Origin: a phage
Sequence record: PZ534515.1
Strand: one strand, 5' to 3'
DNA: 64,000 bases
Below are positions 2,336-64,000 of the stretch, in pieces. The translations under genes and the position numbers were made by a program. Below the pieces are notes generated by a model. The model saw only the letters and a program-made list of their open reading frames with translations, did no database searches and was not told the DNA's origin. Numbering within the stretch: the stretch's first letter is position 1; the number at the start of each line of letters is the position of its first letter.

Positions 2336-3376
2336 ATGGAGAAGTATACACTAACAAAACTTCCCGATTCAGTTACACATGTCTTTATTGACTCTGACAG
2401 TATTGCCTATAAAGGTGCTTGTGTAGTTGAGAAAGCAAAATATAAATATGTCAATAAACTCACAGCAGAAGAGTCTGAACCATTTGATAATGCAAAAGAT
2501 GCTGCAAGATGGTTAGCAGACCAGAGAATCCTTGTAGAAGAGCTTGGCCTAACATTTGATGAAGATGAATGGGAAAGACAGACTTGGAAAGAAGCTAAGA
2601 GTGAAAAAGAAGCTATCATGGCTACTCAGCAGGTTCTTCAGGAATGGCTTAAGGTTGTTGGTAAAGAAAGAACTTGGGTAGGTTATTTAACAGAGAAGGG
2701 TGTACATAAACATAAAGATATTAAAGGTCTTGAGCACCAATATCAAGGTAACCGTAAAGATGCTGTCACACCAACACACTTAGTCGCTTGTCGTGAATAT
2801 CTTTTATCCAGACCAGAGTTCAAACTCTTAAAGGGTGGATTCGAAGCTGATTCAATCGTAATTGCTAAAGCTGAGAAGATGGGTAAAAAGGCTGCTCTTA
2901 TGAGTATTGACAAAGACCTTCGACAAGCTGAAGGGACTTATTGTATTGATATGACTTATGAAAAGTCACCACTAATTTTTATTGCTGACAATAATGTTGG
3001 TGATATCTGGGATTGCCCTATCAAATCAAAACCAAAAGCTGCAAAAACAGTTGGTGTAGGTTTTAAATTCTTGTGTTATCAGGCTGTTGCTGGAGATAAT
3101 GCAGACAACTACTTCGGCCTTAAAGGTGCTGGCAAAGTAGCTGTGATGAATGCTTTGGATGGTAAAGATACCTACAAAGAGTGTCTTGATGCTATCTATG
3201 AACTCTATGCTAAAAAAGAGTCTTACACCTATGTATCATGGGATGGACAGACTGTTACCAAAACGCCATTAGAGTTAATGGAACAGCATTTCTTCCTAGC
3301 TTATCAAGAGAGAAATCCAAAAGATAATTTCTCTTTTAAGAAATATAATTGGGAGCCATGTATGAATGAAGATTAA
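2336..3376 (+). CDS. FEN-family 5'-3' exonuclease / RNase H
   Basis: N-terminal VFIDSDSIAYKGA resembles the PIN/FEN metal-binding motif. GDNADNYFGLKGAGKVAVMNAL matches the H3TH motif of Pol I-type 5' nucleases. Confidence 0.65.
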   Translation: MEKYTLTKLPDSVTHVFIDSDSIAYKGACVVEKAKYKYVNKLTAEESEPFDNAKDAARWLADQRILVEELGLTFDEDEWERQTWKEAKSEKEAIMATQQVLQEWLKVVGKERTWVGYLTEKGVHKHKDIKGLEHQYQGNRKDAVTPTHLVACREYLLSRPEFKLLKGGFEADSIVIAKAEKMGKKAALMSIDKDLRQAEGTYCIDMTYEKSPLIFIADNNVGDIWDCPIKSKPKAAKTVGVGFKFLCYQAVAGDNADNYFGLKGAGKVAVMNALDGKDTYKECLDAIYELYAKKESYTYVSWDGQTVTKTPLELMEQHFFLAYQERNPKDNFSFKKYNWEPCMNED

Positions 3377-44615: not shown

Positions 44616-44692
44616 CTCTGTTTAGCTCAGCTTGGTAGAGCGTTCCGTTTGGGGCGGTAAGGCCGGAGGTTCAAGTCCTCCAACAGAGACCA
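44616..44692 (+). tRNA. tRNA-Pro (anticodon TGG), CCA encoded
   Basis: Hand-folded: acceptor ctctgtt/aacagag, D-arm gctcagcttggtagagc, anticodon loop ttTGGgg, T-arm ggagg-ttcaagt-cctcc. Confidence 0.7.
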
Positions 44693-44699
44693 AATTAAT

Positions 44700-44777
44700 G
44701 TTCCAGTAGACAAAATGGTAAAGTCACCACTCTTTCAAAGTGGATATTTGAGGGTTCAAATCCCTTCTGGAACGCCA
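44700..44777 (+). tRNA. tRNA-Glu (anticodon TTC), CCA encoded
   Basis: Acceptor gttccag/ctggaac, anticodon stem ccact/agtgg with loop ctTTCaa, T-loop ttcaaat. Confidence 0.7.
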
Positions 44778-44868
44778 GTTTTGACAGAAGACCAATTACA
44801 GCAAACTTAATCTTATTCATCTGAAGATAAATCGGACAAAGAAGAGATTTGGTCTGGTCATTAAGAAT

Positions 44869-44945
44869 TGCGGGTATAGAGAAAGGGCGTCTCACATGTC
44901 TCATTAGCATGGTATCGGCAGGTTCGACTCCTGCACCCGCCTCCA
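44869..44945 (+). tRNA. tRNA with anticodon CAT (Met/fMet or Ile-lysidine); 1:72 position unpaired
   Basis: T-arm gcagg-ttcgact-cctgc; acceptor tgcgggt/acccgcc with first-pair mismatch; anticodon loop ctCATta. Atypical features, so lower confidence. Confidence 0.45.
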
Positions 44946-45022
44946 ATTTTGCAGAAGACCGTATTCAGCAACAAACTACTTTTTGCGGATAAAAGAAAAA
45001 ACACGGTCTGGCAATGTATTAA

Positions 45023-45099
45023 GGTTAGGAAGCACATAAGGTATGTGCGGTCGCCTGTTAAGCGAATGGCACAGGGTTCGAATCCCTGACTAACCGCCA
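45023..45099 (+). tRNA. tRNA-Asn (anticodon GTT), CCA encoded
   Basis: D-arm gcac-ataaggtat-gtgc, anticodon loop ctGTTaa, T-arm caggg-ttcgaat-ccctg. Confidence 0.65.
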
Positions 45100-45170
45100 A
45101 ATTTAGGGGAGAAGCGATTGCTCACCGATTTGTAAGGTGCAAGTCCTTAGCCTGAATAGAATAATAAAAT

Positions 45171-45258
45171 GTGTCGTTATCCCGTAGATGGTAGCGGTGG
45201 GGACTGTAAATCCCTTGTCATTGAGACTCGGTAGGTTCGACTCCTACACGGCACACCA
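45171..45258 (+). tRNA. tRNA-Tyr (anticodon GTA), long variable arm, CCA encoded
   Basis: About 85 nt. Acceptor gtgtcgt/acggcac (one GU), anticodon loop ctGTAaa, T-arm gtagg-ttcgact-cctac. Confidence 0.65.
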
Positions 45259-45264
45259 AATAAA

Positions 45265-45342
45265 GGTTATGTAGTTTAATCTGGTTAAAATACTCCCCTG
45301 TCACGGGAGATGATGAGGGTTCAAATCCCTTCGTAACCGCCA
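45265..45342 (+). tRNA. tRNA-Asp (anticodon GTC), CCA encoded
   Basis: Acceptor ggttatg/cgtaacc, anticodon stem ctccc/gggag with loop ctGTCac, T-loop ttcaaat. Confidence 0.7.
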
Positions 45343-45799
45343 AATTATAATAAGTATTTCAAGATGATGTTTTGAGAGGGCTATTTATCCCCTCCCTTAA
45401 AGAGTTCTTACGAGTATTCTTTAAAGGAGCAGAAGACCAAATACAGCAAGTTACTTAAAATTTCAAGCCAATTTAATTTTGAAAAATTTAAAACTTGGTC
45501 TGGCTCAACAAATTTACAGAAGACCGTTTACAGCAAAACTTAAACAATCTATTTCTCCGGTAAAGAAAAGGCGAAGGTTCGATTCCTTCACTCGGCAGAT
45601 GTCGAGTTGGTGTAATGGTAGCACTTAAGATGATAAACAACGGTCTGGTAATTATCTTTGCAGTAGCTTATGTGGCTAATTATGTCGTCCCATGAGTGCC
45701 GATGAATTTCCTTAGCATGATTCTAGATTAGCTTAATAGGAAATGACTCTACAGACCCTTTAGCAAGGTCTGCGTAGGTTACTGCAAAGGTAATTTAAT

Positions 45800-45875
45800 G
45801 GAAGTGTAGCAGAATGGTGATGCGGCAGACTTTTAATCTGACAGGCGATGGGTTCGAATCCCTCCACTTCTACCA
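45800..45875 (+). tRNA. tRNA-Lys (anticodon TTT), CCA encoded
   Basis: Acceptor ggaagtg/cacttct, D-arm gca-gaatggtga-tgc, anticodon loop ctTTTaa. Weak T-stem (ggg/ccc) shared with the paralogous tRNA-Lys(CTT). Confidence 0.6.
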
Positions 45876-45879
45876 ATAT

Positions 45880-45956
45880 GGTTCAGTCGCAGATAAGGTA
45901 ATGCAGGGGTCTCATAAGCCCTATGAATGTGGGTTCGATTCCCATCTGAACCTCCA
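45880..45956 (+). tRNA. tRNA with anticodon CAT (Met-type), CCA encoded
   Basis: Acceptor ggttcag/ctgaacc, anticodon stem ggggt/gccct with loop ctCATaa, T-arm gtggg-ttcgatt-cccat. Confidence 0.65.
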
Positions 45957-45957
45957 A

Positions 45958-46033
45958 GCTGGTATAGTTAAGAAGGTTATAACACTCCCCTGATAAGGGA
46001 ATATCGGTGGTTCGATTCCACCTACCAGTACCA
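45958..46033 (+). tRNA. tRNA-Ile (anticodon GAT), CCA encoded
   Basis: D-arm gtta-agaaggtta-taac, anticodon loop ctGATaa, T-arm ggtgg-ttcgatt-ccacc. Confidence 0.65.
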
Positions 46034-46048
46034 ATTTCAATAAAGTTG

Positions 46049-46077
46049 TTGACATTAACATGTGACCACTTTATAGT
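46049..46077 (+). promoter_or_regulatory. internal sigma70-like promoter in the tRNA bank (TTGACA-17 bp-TATAGT)
   Basis: Hexamers and spacing read directly. Confidence 0.5.
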
Positions 46078-46278
46078 AACCTTAGTTTTCGTTGCGTAGC
46101 GTCTATTTTGCAAATTTAAAATAAATGCAAACGACAATGTTTTTCTGGCAGTAGCTTGATAGGCTAAACACCAGTGAGGTCTTCCAATCCCTCATCAAAG
46201 AATTTGGCGTACTCGCCCACGGTATGATTAATAAGGTGGGCATCTTTAAGGGCTTTCTAAGAGAGTCTTTAAAGATTA

Positions 46279-46355
46279 ATGCACCCTTAGTTCAATTGGA
46301 TAGAGCAACGGTCTTCTAAATCGTTAGTTACAGGTTCGAATCCTGTAGGGTGTGC
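46279..46355 (+). tRNA. tRNA-Arg (anticodon TCT), CCA encoded
   Basis: D-arm gttc-aattggata-gagc, anticodon stem acggt/atcgt with loop ctTCTaa, T-arm acagg-ttcgaat-cctgt. Confidence 0.7.
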
Positions 46356-46499
46356 CAAATAGTTAGCAGATTGCTTAGACGACCTTATCGGGTCTCCGTG
46401 TAAGGAGGTGGTCTGTATCTCATGTTTTCCAGAACATGTAAATAATCTGAGAAGGGGCTTTACAGTGTTGCGAAAATACGGTAAGCTTCGAATTATAGT

Positions 46500-46582
46500 G
46501 TGGGACGATGTTAAGACTCTAAGGCATGAGCAACGGCCTCCAAAACCGTTTCAAAGGGGTTCAACTCCTCCGTCCCATGCCA
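46500..46582 (+). tRNA. tRNA-like gene, probable tRNA-Trp (anticodon CCA) with an enlarged D region
   Basis: Acceptor gtgggac/gtcccat, anticodon arm aacgg(c)-ctCCAaa-(a)ccgtt, T-loop ttcaact. About 7 extra nt between acceptor and anticodon arm; needs a tRNA scanner. Confidence 0.4.
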
Positions 46583-46595
46583 AAGTCTTATTAGG

Positions 46596-46683
46596 GGTAG
46601 GTAGCGGCTAATGGCAGCCAAACAGTCTTGAAAACTGTTGCCACTGTAGAGATACGGTGAGGGTTCGACTCCTTTACTTACCG
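46596..46683 (+). tRNA. tRNA-Ser (anticodon TGA), long variable arm, CCA not encoded
   Basis: 88 nt. Acceptor ggtaggt/acttacc, anticodon loop ctTGAaa, T-arm gaggg-ttcgact-ccttt. Confidence 0.6.
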
Positions 46684-46837
46684 CCTAATAAGATTTAAAG
46701 CCAAGCTTCATTCGGATGTTGCTTTGGTATCCCTCGTGTATTGTCGTACACACTGATAAAGCACCTAGTAGGTGTCACGGAGAAGAGATAATATCAAGCT
46801 CTCCAAAGGTTCTAGTCACCGGATTAAACAAGACTAT

Positions 46838-46862
46838 GCAAAGACCAATTTAGGTCTTTTTA
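46838..46862 (+). terminator. rho-independent terminator inside the tRNA bank
   Basis: aagacc-aattt-aggtctt hairpin followed by TTTT. Confidence 0.5.
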
Positions 46863-46940
46863 GAGGGCTTCTAAGGTTATTACAGCTTGTTGTGGAACCT
46901 TGTTGCTTAGGTTCTTAGAAGTTCTCTAAAAAGATTTAAT

Positions 46941-47017
46941 GCACCTATAGCCCAACTGGTAGAGGCAGCAGACTTAGAATCTGCTCAGTGTGAGTTCGAA
47001 TCTCTCTAGGTGTACCA
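46941..47017 (+). tRNA. tRNA with anticodon TAG (Leu), short variable arm, CCA encoded
   Basis: Acceptor gcaccta/taggtgt, anticodon stem gcaga/tctgc with loop ctTAGaa, T-loop ttcgaat. Variable loop is only about 5 nt. Confidence 0.55.
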
Positions 47018-47024
47018 AATTAAT

Positions 47025-47100
47025 GCAGGTGTAGCAAAATGGTTATGCGGCTGACTCTTAATCAGTAAGACGATGGGTTCAATTCCCTCCACCTGTACCA
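47025..47100 (+). tRNA. tRNA-Lys (anticodon CTT), CCA encoded
   Basis: Close paralog of tRNA-Lys(TTT): acceptor gcaggtg/cacctgt, anticodon loop ctCTTaa. Confidence 0.6.
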
Positions 47101-47106
47101 AACATT

Positions 47107-47182
47107 GGGGTCATAGTTTATATGGTTAAAATTCGAGTTTTGCAAACTTGGGAACTGAGTTCAATTCTCAGTGACTCCACCA
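47107..47182 (+). tRNA. tRNA-Ala (anticodon TGC), CCA encoded
   Basis: Acceptor ggggtca/tgactcc, anticodon loop ttTGCaa, T-arm ctgag-ttcaatt-ctcag. Confidence 0.65.
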
Positions 47183-47188
47183 ATTAGT

Positions 47189-47263
47189 GCATCCATAGTT
47201 TAAACGGGAAAATTACAGTCTTCCAAACTGAGGTTGAGGGTTCGATTCCCTCTGGATGCTCCA
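47189..47263 (+). tRNA. tRNA-Gly (anticodon TCC), CCA encoded
   Basis: Perfect acceptor gcatcca/tggatgc, anticodon loop ctTCCaa, T-arm gaggg-ttcgatt-ccctc. Confidence 0.7.
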
Positions 47264-47269
47264 AACAAT

Positions 47270-47346
47270 GCTGCTTTCGTATAATTGGCTATTACACATC
47301 CCTTGTAAGGATGGAGATGCGGGTTCAAGTCCTGTGAGCAGCACCA
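47270..47346 (+). tRNA. tRNA-Thr (anticodon TGT), CCA encoded
   Basis: Acceptor gctgctt/gagcagc, anticodon stem catcc/ggatg with loop ctTGTaa, T-loop ttcaagt. Confidence 0.7.
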
Positions 47347-47441
47347 ATTCAGAGGTCAAGTGAAAGACCGCTGGTGTCAACTGAAGACCGTAACAAATTC
47401 CACGGAGTTGAGTTAGCGGCACAACTTCAGACCTCTTTCAT

Positions 47442-47516
47442 ACTCGCTTAGTTTATATGGTAAAACATCACCCTTACAAGATGAAGAAAAAGGTTCAAGT
47501 CCTTTAGTGAGTACCA
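47442..47516 (+). tRNA. tRNA-Val (anticodon TAC), CCA encoded
   Basis: Acceptor actcgct/agtgagt, anticodon loop ctTACaa, T-arm aaagg-ttcaagt-ccttt. Confidence 0.6.
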
Positions 47517-47517
47517 T

Positions 47518-47595
47518 GTTCCAGTATCCCAATTGGCAGAGGATGCAAGCTCAAACCTTGTACTAGTGACGGTTCGAATCCGTCTTGGAACACCA
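47518..47595 (+). tRNA. tRNA with anticodon CAA (Leu), short variable arm, CCA encoded
   Basis: Acceptor gttccag/ttggaac, anticodon stem gcaag/cttgt with loop ctCAAac, T-arm gacgg-ttcgaat-ccgtc. Confidence 0.55.
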
Positions 47596-47600
47596 ATTTT

Positions 47601-47676
47601 GCAGGATTAGTTCAAATGGATAGAGCAACAGTCTACGAAGCTGTTAATAGGGGTTCGAATCCCTTATCCTGCACCA
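47601..47676 (+). tRNA. tRNA-Arg (anticodon ACG), CCA encoded
   Basis: Perfect acceptor gcaggat/atcctgc, D-arm gttc-aaatggata-gagc, anticodon loop ctACGaa. Confidence 0.7.
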
Positions 47677-47695
47677 ATTTAAAGAGGCTATTTAG

Positions 47696-48253
47696 ATGAG
47701 ATATTTGAAGTATGCTTCATGGATTTTCCTAGCTTTGTTAGACCCATTGGCAGCAACCTTAGCAGTTATCTTAGCACCTTTTGTAGTTCCATTCTATAGT
47801 GAGAAGAAAGGACATCTACCTTTTGGATTCAGATGGATGGAGACATATGACAACCCCATTGATGGTGATGAAGGTCACATTAAACGATGGGCTAAGATTA
47901 GAAAGATTGGTAAGCTTGGTGTCTATTTGCAGAGAGTTGGATGGCTCTGGAGAAACAAAGCTTATAACTTCTCTTACCATGTGTTAGGAAGAGATATAAA
48001 AGATGTTACTAAGTGGAAAGGTAATATCAACGTAAGCTCTGACCCTGAAGATAATCAGACAGGTTATCTCCTAATGTGGAACAGTAATGCTTGGGGATTA
48101 TTCGCTTTTATCCCATCAATTAAAGTCTTTGGTAAACAATTCTACTGGAGAATTTATGTTGGGTGGAAACTAAAAAGTGTTGTCCCAGAAGAAAGAGCAT
48201 TCTCAAGGGAAAGAGTTATGTTGGCATTCTTTATTCATCCACTGAGAAAGTAA
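47696..48253 (+). CDS. hypothetical membrane protein embedded in the tRNA bank
   Basis: ATG with AAGAGG 8 nt upstream. N-terminal TM helix (WIFLALLDPLAATLAVILAPFVV), Trp-rich. Flanked by tRNAs on both sides. Confidence 0.5.
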   Translation: MRYLKYASWIFLALLDPLAATLAVILAPFVVPFYSEKKGHLPFGFRWMETYDNPIDGDEGHIKRWAKIRKIGKLGVYLQRVGWLWRNKAYNFSYHVLGRDIKDVTKWKGNINVSSDPEDNQTGYLLMWNSNAWGLFAFIPSIKVFGKQFYWRIYVGWKLKSVVPEERAFSRERVMLAFFIHPLRK

Positions 48254-48261
48254 AGATTTAA

Positions 48262-48337
48262 AGGGGATTAGTTTACAAGGTTAAAACCTCGGTCTTTGAA
48301 ATCGAAGAAGTTGGTTCAATTCCAACATCCCCCGCCA
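48262..48337 (+). tRNA. tRNA-Gln (anticodon TTG), CCA encoded
   Basis: Anticodon stem tcggt/atcga with loop ctTTGaa, T-arm gttgg-ttcaatt-ccaac. Confidence 0.6.
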
Positions 48338-48339
48338 AT

Positions 48340-48418
48340 GCTCCATTACTCCAATTGGCAGAGAGGCCAGACTTAAAATCTGTGTTATGTATCGGTTCGA
48401 ATCCGATATGGAGTACCA
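48340..48418 (+). tRNA. tRNA with anticodon TAA (Leu), variable region about 8 nt, CCA encoded
   Basis: Acceptor gctccat/atggagt, anticodon loop ctTAAaa, perfect T-arm atcgg-ttcgaat-ccgat. Confidence 0.55.
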
Positions 48419-48423
48419 AATTT

Positions 48424-48499
48424 AGCGGTATAGCATAACTGTCAATGCAGCAGTCTCTGAAGCTGTCCTATTAAGGTTCAAATCCTTATGCCGCTGCCA
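48424..48499 (+). tRNA. tRNA-Gln (anticodon CTG), CCA encoded
   Basis: Acceptor agcggta/tgccgct, anticodon loop ctCTGaa, T-arm taagg-ttcaaat-cctta. Confidence 0.65.
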
Positions 48500-48522
48500 C
48501 TTCTAAGGATTCTTACGAGAGT

Positions 48523-48598
48523 CTTTAAATGTGGCCTTATCATAAATGGTAATGACCCATGCTGTGAACATGGTCTATACGGGTTCAAATCCCGTAGG
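48523..48598 (+). tRNA. tRNA-His (anticodon GTG), CCA encoded
   Basis: Anticodon stem ccatg/catgg with loop ctGTGaa, T-arm acggg-ttcaaat-cccgt. Confidence 0.65.
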
Positions 48599-48603
48599 TC
48601 ACC

Positions 48604-48679
48604 CCAATTTATAGTCCAAGTAGCTTATATGGTTAAAGCGCGTGTCTGAAAAACATGAGAAGAGGGTTCAAATCCCACT
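48604..48679 (+). tRNA. tRNA-Phe (anticodon GAA), CCA encoded
   Basis: Acceptor agtccaa/ctggact, anticodon loop ctGAAaa, T-loop ttcaaat. Confidence 0.6.
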
Positions 48680-48695
48680 GGACTACCAATTTCAA

Positions 48696-49439
48696 AGGTG
48701 CTTAATGAAAGAGATGACAGAACAAGGTAAGGAGATTTTTAATCTCTTAAAAACCGGTAGAGGGTTTTCTAATCCCCTTATTACTGGTGCAGCAGTTCTA
48801 GGTGGAACCGTAGCTGCCTCTACATCACTTGTAAGCTCTATTAGCTCTGTAACAGACCCTGCAATGAAGGATAAGCTCATTGCTGCTGGACTTACAACAG
48901 TTCTGCTTAATAGCTTTACAACGAGTCTGACAAGCACTACATCAACTACTAAGACATTGACAGATTATGGTCAAAAATCTATTGATGAGTTTTCCTCACG
49001 TATGCAGGTAGCAAAAGGCTACTCCAATGTTATGGGTGCAGCAGGAGAGCAAGTTGGTTGTACACCATTTAGTGGTATTATGGGTGTTGCTACAGAGTAT
49101 GGTCAAAAAGCTATGGATACAATTAACAGCACACTAGATGGCGTTAATGATGTATTAAGTGACTTACAGGATGCTATTGATAAAGGGCTTGATACTATTT
49201 CTGATTTAGCTAACCAAGCTGTTAGTAAGATTAATGAAGGTATCTCGAAGATTACAGCTTATGCAGATGAAGTTGTGCAGATGATTGAAGAAGAAGCTGC
49301 CCTTATTGCAGAGTACCTTAAAACGAATATCAATGGGTTCTTAGCAGGTATCTTACCAGACTGGTTTGACGATGCTTGTAAAACTGGTGTGATTGACACT
49401 ATTGCAACACCAGAAATGAAGAACGCATTACAGAAATAA
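48696..49439 (+). CDS. hypothetical protein (Ser/Thr/Ala-rich, helical) between tRNA genes
   Basis: In-frame ATG just after tRNA-Phe with AAAGG upstream; the track start at 48642 would overlap the tRNA. Confidence 0.5.
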   Translation, partial: RCLMKEMTEQGKEIFNLLKTGRGFSNPLITGAAVLGGTVAASTSLVSSISSVTDPAMKDKLIAAGLTTVLLNSFTTSLTSTTSTTKTLTDYGQKSIDEFSSRMQVAKGYSNVMGAAGEQVGCTPFSGIMGVATEYGQKAMDTINSTLDGVNDVLSDLQDAIDKGLDTISDLANQAVSKINEGISKITAYADEVVQMIEEEAALIAEYLKTNINGFLAGILPDWFDDACKTGVIDTIATPEMKNALQK

Positions 49440-49440
49440 T

Positions 49441-49533
49441 GGAAGATTAACCCTAAAAGGTAAGGGAGCAGTTTGCTAAACTGCCAGTAGCTGAGAAATC
49501 GGTGTACCAGTTCAAGTCTGGTATCTTCCTCCA
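49441..49533 (+). tRNA. tRNA-Ser (anticodon GCT), long variable arm, CCA encoded
   Basis: Acceptor ggaagat/atcttcc, anticodon stem gcagt/actgc with loop ttGCTaa, T-arm accag-ttcaagt-ctggt. About 90 nt. Confidence 0.65.
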
Positions 49534-49537
49534 ATTT

Positions 49538-49613
49538 GAATCCGTGACAGAAATGGATATGTGCCTGTCTGCAAAACAGGTTTATAAGGGTTCGAGTCCC
49601 TTCGGATTCTCCA
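49538..49613 (+). tRNA. tRNA-Cys (anticodon GCA), CCA encoded
   Basis: Perfect acceptor gaatccg/cggattc, anticodon stem cctgt/acagg with loop ctGCAaa, T-loop ttcgagt. Confidence 0.7.

Positions 49614-61315: not shown

Positions 61316-64000
<2,685 letters not shown>

Follow-up and report, generated by a model that had tools for sequence, protein, structure and literature searches.

The window analysed here, a 64,000-nucleotide (nt) stretch of phage sequence record PZ534515.1, carries a cluster of 26 transfer RNA (tRNA) genes at 44616..49613, all called on the plus strand by ARAGORN and Rfam. The source phage is a Felixounavirus, one of the Felix O1-like phages that infect E. coli and Salmonella. 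The cluster was 94–97% identical to Felix O1-like phages (Ounavirinae) of Salmonella, Escherichia and Shigella, and it matched 349 phage records in all. Three of its genes have leucine anticodons: tRNA-Leu(UAG) at 46941..47017, tRNA-Leu(CAA) at 47518..47595 and tRNA-Leu(UAA) at 48340..48418, each on the plus strand and each supported by ARAGORN, Rfam and a position-by-position parse. In textbooks and in work on synthetases, bacterial tRNA-Leu counts as a class II tRNA. The initial annotation had proposed that all three genes lack the long variable arm, and had left a choice between class-I-like tRNA-Leu and tRNAs of an identity other than the anticodon suggests. The analysis below supports the first option.

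ARAGORN returned the same coordinates and the same anticodons (TAG, CAA and TAA) as that annotation, and full-length matches to the Rfam model RF00005 scored 57.3 bits (TAG gene), 43.6 bits (CAA gene) and 47.5 bits (TAA gene). Because these scores lie far above the gathering score of 29 bits, a chance match is excluded, and all three genes are members of the RF00005 cloverleaf family by both programs. In the Rfam alignment the TAG gene folds as a class I cloverleaf. With the encoded CCA the genes are 77 (TAG), 78 (CAA) and 79 nt (TAA) long, and without it 74, 75 and 76 nt, which agrees with the short total lengths first reported for them. Automated folding by ARAGORN and Rfam uncovered no long arm that had been missed and no other anticodon.

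We cut the three phage genes and five distinct E. coli K-12 tRNA-Leu genes into canonical tRNA segments. The variable region was TCAGT (5 nt) in the TAG gene, ACTAGT (6 nt) in the CAA gene and GTTATGT (7 nt) in the TAA gene, within the 5–8 nt estimated originally, compared with 13–15 nt in the five E. coli genes. A class II arm, which has more than 10 nt, a stem and an unpaired 47n, is absent, and the short loops are stemless. They do have the form expected of type I tRNA-Leu, in which a leucine anticodon goes with a variable loop that spans 5 nt or more and contains nucleotide 48 (PMC6614811). The anticodon loops are CUUAGAA with A37 (UAG), CUCAAAC (CAA) and CUUAAAA (UAA), identical to those read in the initial annotation, and all are 7-nt loops with U33 and a leucine anticodon (NAG or YAA) at positions 34–36.

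The remainder of each molecule resembles an E. coli tRNA-Leu. All three genes encode the A73 discriminator and CCA, and all have U8:A14 and the A15:U48 Levitt pair, with U48 as the last nucleotide of the variable region. The D stem has 3 base pairs followed by an unpaired 13:22, and the 10-nt D loop, AAYYGGYAGA, places A15, G18G19 and A20a in the register of E. coli tRNA-Leu. The T loop is TTCGAAT, with the partners U54, U55, C56 and A58 present, so that the E. coli-type tertiary core (U8:A14, A15:U48, G18G19, A20a and the T-loop partners) is complete in all three. The leucine determinants established for E. coli, namely A73, A15:U48, G18G19, A20a, G18:U55, G19:C56 and U54:A58 (PMC9976931), are likewise all found. 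The core differs at three places, where the phage genes have A9, C12:G23 and C13 and E. coli has G9, G12:C23 and G or A13. The TAG gene has a G1.U72 pair and a U50.U64 mismatch in the T stem.

By contrast, the elements read by the other two synthetases that disregard the anticodon are missing. There is no G3:U70 for alanyl-tRNA synthetase (AlaRS), the 3:70 pairs being A:U, U:A and U:A, and there is no long arm or G73 for seryl-tRNA synthetase (SerRS), whose main determinant is the size of the arm (PMC9976931); on these grounds both enzymes are excluded. Isotype-specific tRNAscan-SE models, suggested as a check in the initial annotation, have been applied in print to Mooglevirus Sf14, whose tRNA-Leu genes differ from the three in the window by 1 nt each. 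Leucine scored highest for all three orthologues: Leu_TAG, Leu 67.4 and next Ile2 65.7; Leu_CAA, Leu 49.1 against 36.1 for the next model; Leu_TAA, Leu 60.2 against 54.2 (PMC12482277). Identity elements and isotype scores together support the assignment of the three genes as putative type I tRNA-Leu and disfavour a different identity, and the tRNA-Leu labels given by annotation pipelines look right.

The genes are conserved among related phages. Phages ekra and Sf14 have the same tRNA gene order, and both records annotate three tRNA-Leu genes. Phage wV8 and many other Felixounavirus records contain a 100% identical TAG gene, annotated there as tRNA-Leu. The CAA gene reaches at least 95% identity in 248 phage records; for the TAA gene, 216 records reach at least 99% and 253 at least 95%. 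The cluster region overall is only 80–95% identical in most of those records, so these two genes vary less than the DNA around them.

A TAG gene like that of the window, at 95% identity or more, occurs in only about 85 records, compared with about 250 that have the CAA and TAA genes, and the slot between tRNA-Ser(TGA) and tRNA-Lys(CTT) in Felixounavirus holds two unrelated versions of tRNA-Leu(TAG). The version shared by the window, wV8 and Sf14 is nearer to mycobacteriophage tRNA-Leu (about 81%) than to that of ekra, which is also short and has a poorly paired D stem (2943–3020 of the extracted ekra locus). The two unrelated versions and the difference in record counts suggest that single tRNA genes may be replaced like cassettes within the cluster. 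Separately, a 100% copy of the window's tRNA-Leu(TAA) lies at 62026–62103 of GU169904.1 (Staphylococcus phage SA1), which suggests that a mixed or mislabelled assembly brought Felix O1-like DNA into the deposited SA1 sequence.

Armless tRNA-Leu is widespread in phages and much commoner than the literature suggests. A sensitive BLAST search with the TAG gene gave ungapped matches over positions 8–75 to tRNA-Leu of unrelated phages, and the six that we fetched were all 74–76 nt long. They came from Mycobacterium phage ET08 (Bixzunavirus), Cronobacter phage CR9 (Vequintavirinae), Cyanophage P-RSM6 of Prochlorococcus (Kyanoviridae), Enterococcus phage Bop (Herelleviridae), Streptomyces phage Jay2Jay (Stanwilliamsviridae) and crAss-like phage cr111_1 (Crassvirales). 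The window Leu(TAG) was about 81% identical to mycobacteriophage tRNA-Leu genes. We also scanned IMG/VR contigs, and bacterial and archaeal contigs at one genome per species, with a pattern that fixed the leucine D loop, a leucine-type anticodon loop and the T loop and left the variable region free between 4 and 34 nt, and we sampled 120 stretches from each. Short forms made up 18 of the 120 viral stretches (about 15%), a number inferred from 18 loci re-used from a short-only scan, and 3 of the 120 cellular ones (2.5%; Fisher p = 0.0009), with 10 against 2 among the 80 listed rows. The length of the variable region was sharply bimodal, with a peak at 5 nt, further peaks at 13 and 15 nt, and zero at 10 nt.

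We next consider 118 viral loci that were selected for holding a short tRNA-Leu, 113 of which contain several tRNAs. All six leucine anticodons occur among the short viral tRNA-Leu, with A73 in 172 of 173 and U48 in 170 of 173. ARAGORN called 171 short and 26 long tRNA-Leu at these loci, a ratio biased by the selection, together with 1 short and 92 long tRNA-Ser and 4 short and 36 long tRNA-Tyr, most of the short tRNA-Tyr having a stub arm. Loss of the arm is therefore specific to leucine, as tRNA-Ser and tRNA-Tyr almost always keep their arms in the sampled phages, and this agrees with the reliance of SerRS on arm size. The window contains its own internal controls, which had been recognized as long-armed from the outset: class II tRNA-Tyr (88 nt, 45171–45258) and two class II tRNA-Ser genes (90 nt, 46596–46685; 93 nt, 49441–49533), all on the plus strand and called by ARAGORN with the arm kept. 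Both short and long tRNA-Leu were present at 18 of the IMG/VR loci. In Enterococcus phage vB_OCPT_Bop, an 86-nt tRNA-Leu(taa) adjoins a 76-nt tRNA-Leu(tag).

All three cellular cases were actinobacterial. We considered a prophage origin for them and rejected it: the neighbours are ordinary chromosomal genes, encoding MspA porins, a chorismate-binding enzyme, an S8 peptidase, a histidine kinase, glutamate synthase and a sigma factor. Because of these neighbours, type I tRNA-Leu seems to be chromosomally encoded in some Actinobacteria, consistent with what is known of Streptomyces coelicolor. Examples are found in Gordonia sp. ABSL11-1 (locus L257, 491–566) and Herbiconiux sp. UC225_62 (locus L297, 2732–2806); the Gordonia gene has a near-identical counterpart on an IMG/VR contig (L114). 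The actinobacterial short-arm set includes UAA, and at locus L312 (3550–3794) a CAG-UAA-GAG trio adjoins a 100-nt tRNA-Tyr.

Covariation supports an armless cloverleaf under selection. In a gapless alignment of 118 distinct 74-nt short tRNA-Leu, including the window TAG gene, 98.4% of cells were paired, a percentage inflated by the use of ARAGORN and a stem filter to pick the set, and 19 of the 20 pairs showed compensatory changes, a diversity of pair types that the selection does not inflate. The covariation score was 1.02, compared with 0.24 after shuffling and at most 0.19 with slid partners. Some 73–76 of the 118 sequences (about two thirds) share A9, C12:G23 and C13.A22 with all three window genes, and 36 (about one third) keep the class II core of G9 and G12:C23, which is present in 96–100% of long-arm tRNA-Leu, viral or cellular. 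Position 9 covaries near-perfectly with 12:23, A9 going with C12:G23 and G9 with G12:C23. This looks like a base-triple switch that would accompany arm loss in most, but not all, lineages.

A single origin of the short form was considered and is unsupported. When cores stripped of their arms were compared, the nearest neighbour of a short sequence was also short in 141 of 160 cases, and mean core identity was 0.60 between short sequences and 0.58 between short and long ones. Given these near-equal identities, and given the second subtype with a class II core, we make no claim of a single origin. It seems more likely that the arm was lost independently several times, in some cases with later remodelling of the core.

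The anticodons fit the codon usage of the phage. The GC content of the window is 39%, and the leucine codons of its long open reading frames (ORFs) include TTA at 0.24, TTG at 0.14, CTA at 0.11 and CTG at 0.18, so that UUA, UUG and CUA together account for 49%. In E. coli, CUG dominates and tRNA-Leu(CAG) is the major species. No tRNA-Leu(CAG) for this host-preferred codon is found among the tRNAs of the phage cluster; as readers with UAA, CAA and UAG are supplied and a CAG reader is not, the set fits a role in supplementing minor isoacceptors of the host.

The largest ORFs of the window encode ribonucleotide reductases, a nicotinamide phosphoribosyltransferase of the NAMPT/NAPRTase family, a terminase and a tape measure protein, and one ORF of 788 amino acids has no Pfam match. 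A phage-encoded leucyl-tRNA synthetase (LeuRS) was considered and rejected for the window, as no synthetase is present among these largest ORFs; about 24 kb of the genome lies beyond the window. Two conserved protein-coding genes lie inside the tRNA cluster, both on the plus strand: a DUF7338 gene (185 amino acids, phrog_2143) at 47696–48253 and a DUF7217 gene (265 amino acids, phrog_2114) at 48642–49439. The start of the DUF7217 ORF overlaps tRNA-Phe, and its relatives are annotated as a putative membrane protein.

Because the large ORFs of this Felixounavirus window hold no synthetase, the enzyme expected to charge the three tRNAs is the LeuRS of the host. We propose that the genes encode functional type I tRNA-Leu that would be charged by host LeuRS through the leucine identity set they have kept, and we put the probability of this reading at about 0.78. 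The bacterial arm of 13–15 nt is replaced by a 5–7-nt loop ending in U48, with the other E. coli-type identity elements retained, and the host enzyme would recognize A73 and the core formed by the D loop, the T loop and the Levitt pair, as it does in its own tRNA-Leu. The charged tRNAs would read UUA, UUG and CUA, and possibly further CUN codons. Consistent with this idea, mutational work reviewed in PMC9976931 indicates that E. coli leucylation does not require the long arm, and armless minimal E. coli tRNA-Leu variants are charged. In Aquifex aeolicus LeuRS, removing the arm mainly costs affinity, whereas deletion of U48 abolishes charging (PMC2377443).

Several observations weigh against this proposal. 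E. coli LeuRS (EcLeuRS) has been tried in print on just one natural bacterial type I tRNA-Leu, S. coelicolor tRNA-Leu(CAA), and failed to charge it; the authors hold that EcLeuRS is specific for type II tRNAs, with a leucine-specific domain that favours a large variable loop (PMC6614811). The variable arm also touches the C-terminal domain of EcLeuRS (PMC13454842), for which reason some loss of affinity is likely. Leu(UAA) has a C27.U43 mismatch at the top of its anticodon stem, the margin of Leu over Ile2 for Sf14 Leu_TAG is 1.7 bits (PMC12482277), and the covariation rests on a filtered set, as noted above. In addition, Leu(UAG) has A37, whereas 84 of 85 cellular CUN-reading tRNA-Leu have G37. 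Among viral CUN readers A37 is frequent (45 of 86 short and 21 of 91 long), and by these counts G37, the m1G37 site that is a substrate of TrmD, appears to be often lost in phage tRNA-Leu. The anticodon loop of the window Leu(UAG) (46975–46981) also has C32 and A38, compared with U32 and U38 in host leuW. The failure of EcLeuRS on the S. coelicolor tRNA may stem from its C48 and not from the missing arm, since EcLeuRS needs the U48 of A15:U48. Given this difference, and given that armless minimal E. coli variants are charged, we think that the phage tRNAs are probably leucylated by the host enzyme and used in translation.

Why the arm should be lost is a separate question. Our preferred reading is that it would be lost only where the synthetase tolerates its absence, so that tRNA-Leu loses it and tRNA-Ser and tRNA-Tyr keep it. 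The armless form might then persist in phages through weaker constraint on their tRNA genes, or through escape from factors in the host by which class II arms are bound or cleaved. That cells almost always keep the arm implies selection for it in cells or against it in phages.

The second of these routes can be stated as an explanation of its own, one that would add to host charging, as the tRNAs would still carry leucine. Armlessness would be an anti-defence trait by which phage tRNA-Leu evades nucleases or toxins that recognize the class II arm, and leucine decoding would continue while host tRNA-Leu is under attack. We regard this as possible, with a modest chance of being right. There are precedents, in that tRNA-Tyr of T5-type phages resists through an altered variable loop (PMC12673091, PMC13096335) and a toxin gripping the arm of tRNA-Ser is known. 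Short tRNA-Leu was roughly 6 times commoner among viral than among cellular hits (18/120 versus 3/120), and A37, C32 and A38 give Leu(UAG) an anticodon loop that differs from that of the host, as in a published model of evasion. However, no defence aimed at the arm of tRNA-Leu was found in the literature consulted, and the Gifsy-1 terminase, which does cut tRNA-Leu, cuts at the anticodon region (PMC11610961). T5, the best-studied of the phages that counter tRNA-targeting defences, keeps an 85-nt long-arm tRNA-Leu, and short and long forms stand side by side at 18 viral loci.

A broader proposal joins the two ideas. The phages would share a phage-enriched armless design, spread over at least six phage families or orders and several host phyla, in which a remodelled core (A9, C12:G23 and C13.A22, in most copies including the three of the window) would let ordinary bacterial LeuRS enzymes, EcLeuRS among them, charge the tRNA. 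Phages would keep the design because host factors that recognize class II arms fail to see it. We hold this combination to be doubtful. If true, it would contradict the published view of EcLeuRS as an enzyme for type II tRNA-Leu only.

It is quite unlikely that these are real tRNAs which host LeuRS charges poorly or not at all, and which serve, for example, as decoys for host factors that bind tRNA, or are charged by another synthetase. Such an account could draw on the description of EcLeuRS as type II-specific and its failure on the S. coelicolor tRNA (PMC6614811), as well as on tRNAscan-SE scores of Sf14 Leu(TAG) for Ile2, Lys and Arg that come near its Leu score (PMC12482277). It has difficulty explaining why the E. 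coli leucine set, minus the arm, is kept here, and why A73 and U48 recur in about 170 independent examples from phages, since a decoy could do without such a set. Candidates for the other synthetase are also scarce: AlaRS would lack G3:U70, SerRS would lack the long arm and G73, and synthetases that read the anticodon would refuse UAG, CAA and UAA by the identity rules (PMC9976931). The conserved anticodons match codons that the phage uses heavily, and the armless E. coli variants reviewed in that work are charged.

That the genes are decaying pseudogenes or prediction artefacts, derived from tRNA-Leu by deletion, is highly improbable: phage ekra does have an odd short tRNA-Leu(TAG) with a poor D stem in the same slot, and some GenBank records label one cluster tRNA 'pseudogene' or 'OTHER', but the stems here are intact except that two of the three genes have a single mismatch, Rfam scores are 43–57 bits with near-identity across about 250 genomes, compensatory changes occur at 19 of 20 stem pairs in the wider family, and the bimodal variable length (peak at 5 nt, zero at 10) is not the smear that deletion would leave.

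A common and easily grown group of coliphages and Salmonella phages thus has three putative type I tRNA-Leu genes under evident selection, even though the host enzyme is reported not to charge one such tRNA. These tRNAs offer a simple test system for whether EcLeuRS needs the arm, and the contrast of leucine with serine and tyrosine is a natural experiment on how far synthetases depend on it. The wider pattern also offers a tangible clue to why phages alter their tRNAs.

Mitochondria and S. coelicolor are established sources of type I tRNA-Leu, and one mycobacterial tRNA cluster has been mentioned in passing as another; in coliphages and the many other phages that have it, the form has hardly been described. 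Our literature search found no description of armless tRNA-Leu in phages, and it is unmentioned in papers on Sf14 tRNAs, anticodon-loop evasion, bacterial Schlafen, OLD and long tRNA arrays. The Sf14 tRNA paper (PMC12482277) says nothing of the variable arm, and the S. coelicolor study (Fan et al., NAR 2019; PMC6614811) does not mention phages. The latter calls bacterial type I tRNA-Leu rare and regards S. coelicolor LeuRS (ScoLeuRS) as the sole prokaryotic LeuRS that charges both types. In that organism, type I tRNA-Leu(CAA) is charged by its own LeuRS and its gene could not be deleted; U8:A14 matters, and nucleotide 48 and at least 5 loop nucleotides are required (PMC6614811). Its 5-nt loop, ACAGC, is near the TCAGT, CCAGT and ACAGT of the phage family. 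However, that tRNA is chromosomal and has C48, whereas those of the window are phage-borne and have U48. Moreover, ScoLeuRS ignores A73 and needs a special leucine-specific domain, and the tRNA is not charged by EcLeuRS, the enzyme that the phage tRNAs must use (PMC6614811).

The tRNA-Leu(TAG) of Mycobacterium mucogenicum/phocaicum has a short variable loop and lies, like the window genes, in a dense, mobile-looking tRNA cluster, and the chromosome also has a normal copy with the long arm (Behra et al. 2019, PMC6582537). It differs in having an actinobacterial host, and it was reported in one sentence as a structural oddity, without analysis of identity, distribution or charging (PMC6582537). 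Animal mitochondrial tRNA-Leu, such as human mt-tRNA-Leu(UUR), is also type I, relies on A73 and A14 as determinants and is charged without an arm (PMC9976931), but it has a dedicated mitochondrial LeuRS and a floppy, reduced structure.

The class II tRNA-Leu of E. coli (leuQPV, leuT, leuU, leuW, leuX and leuZ) and of phage T5 share with the window genes the D-arm design, the Levitt pair, the T loop and the discriminator, and leuW, leuX and leuZ are the host counterparts of the phage anticodons UAG, CAA and UAA. They differ in having a variable region of 13–15 nt with a stem, and G9, G12:C23 and G or A at position 13. The CUN readers of E. coli have G37 where the window Leu(UAG) has A37, and the tRNA-Leu(UAG) of phage T5, at 85 nt, has the long arm that its counterpart in the window lacks.

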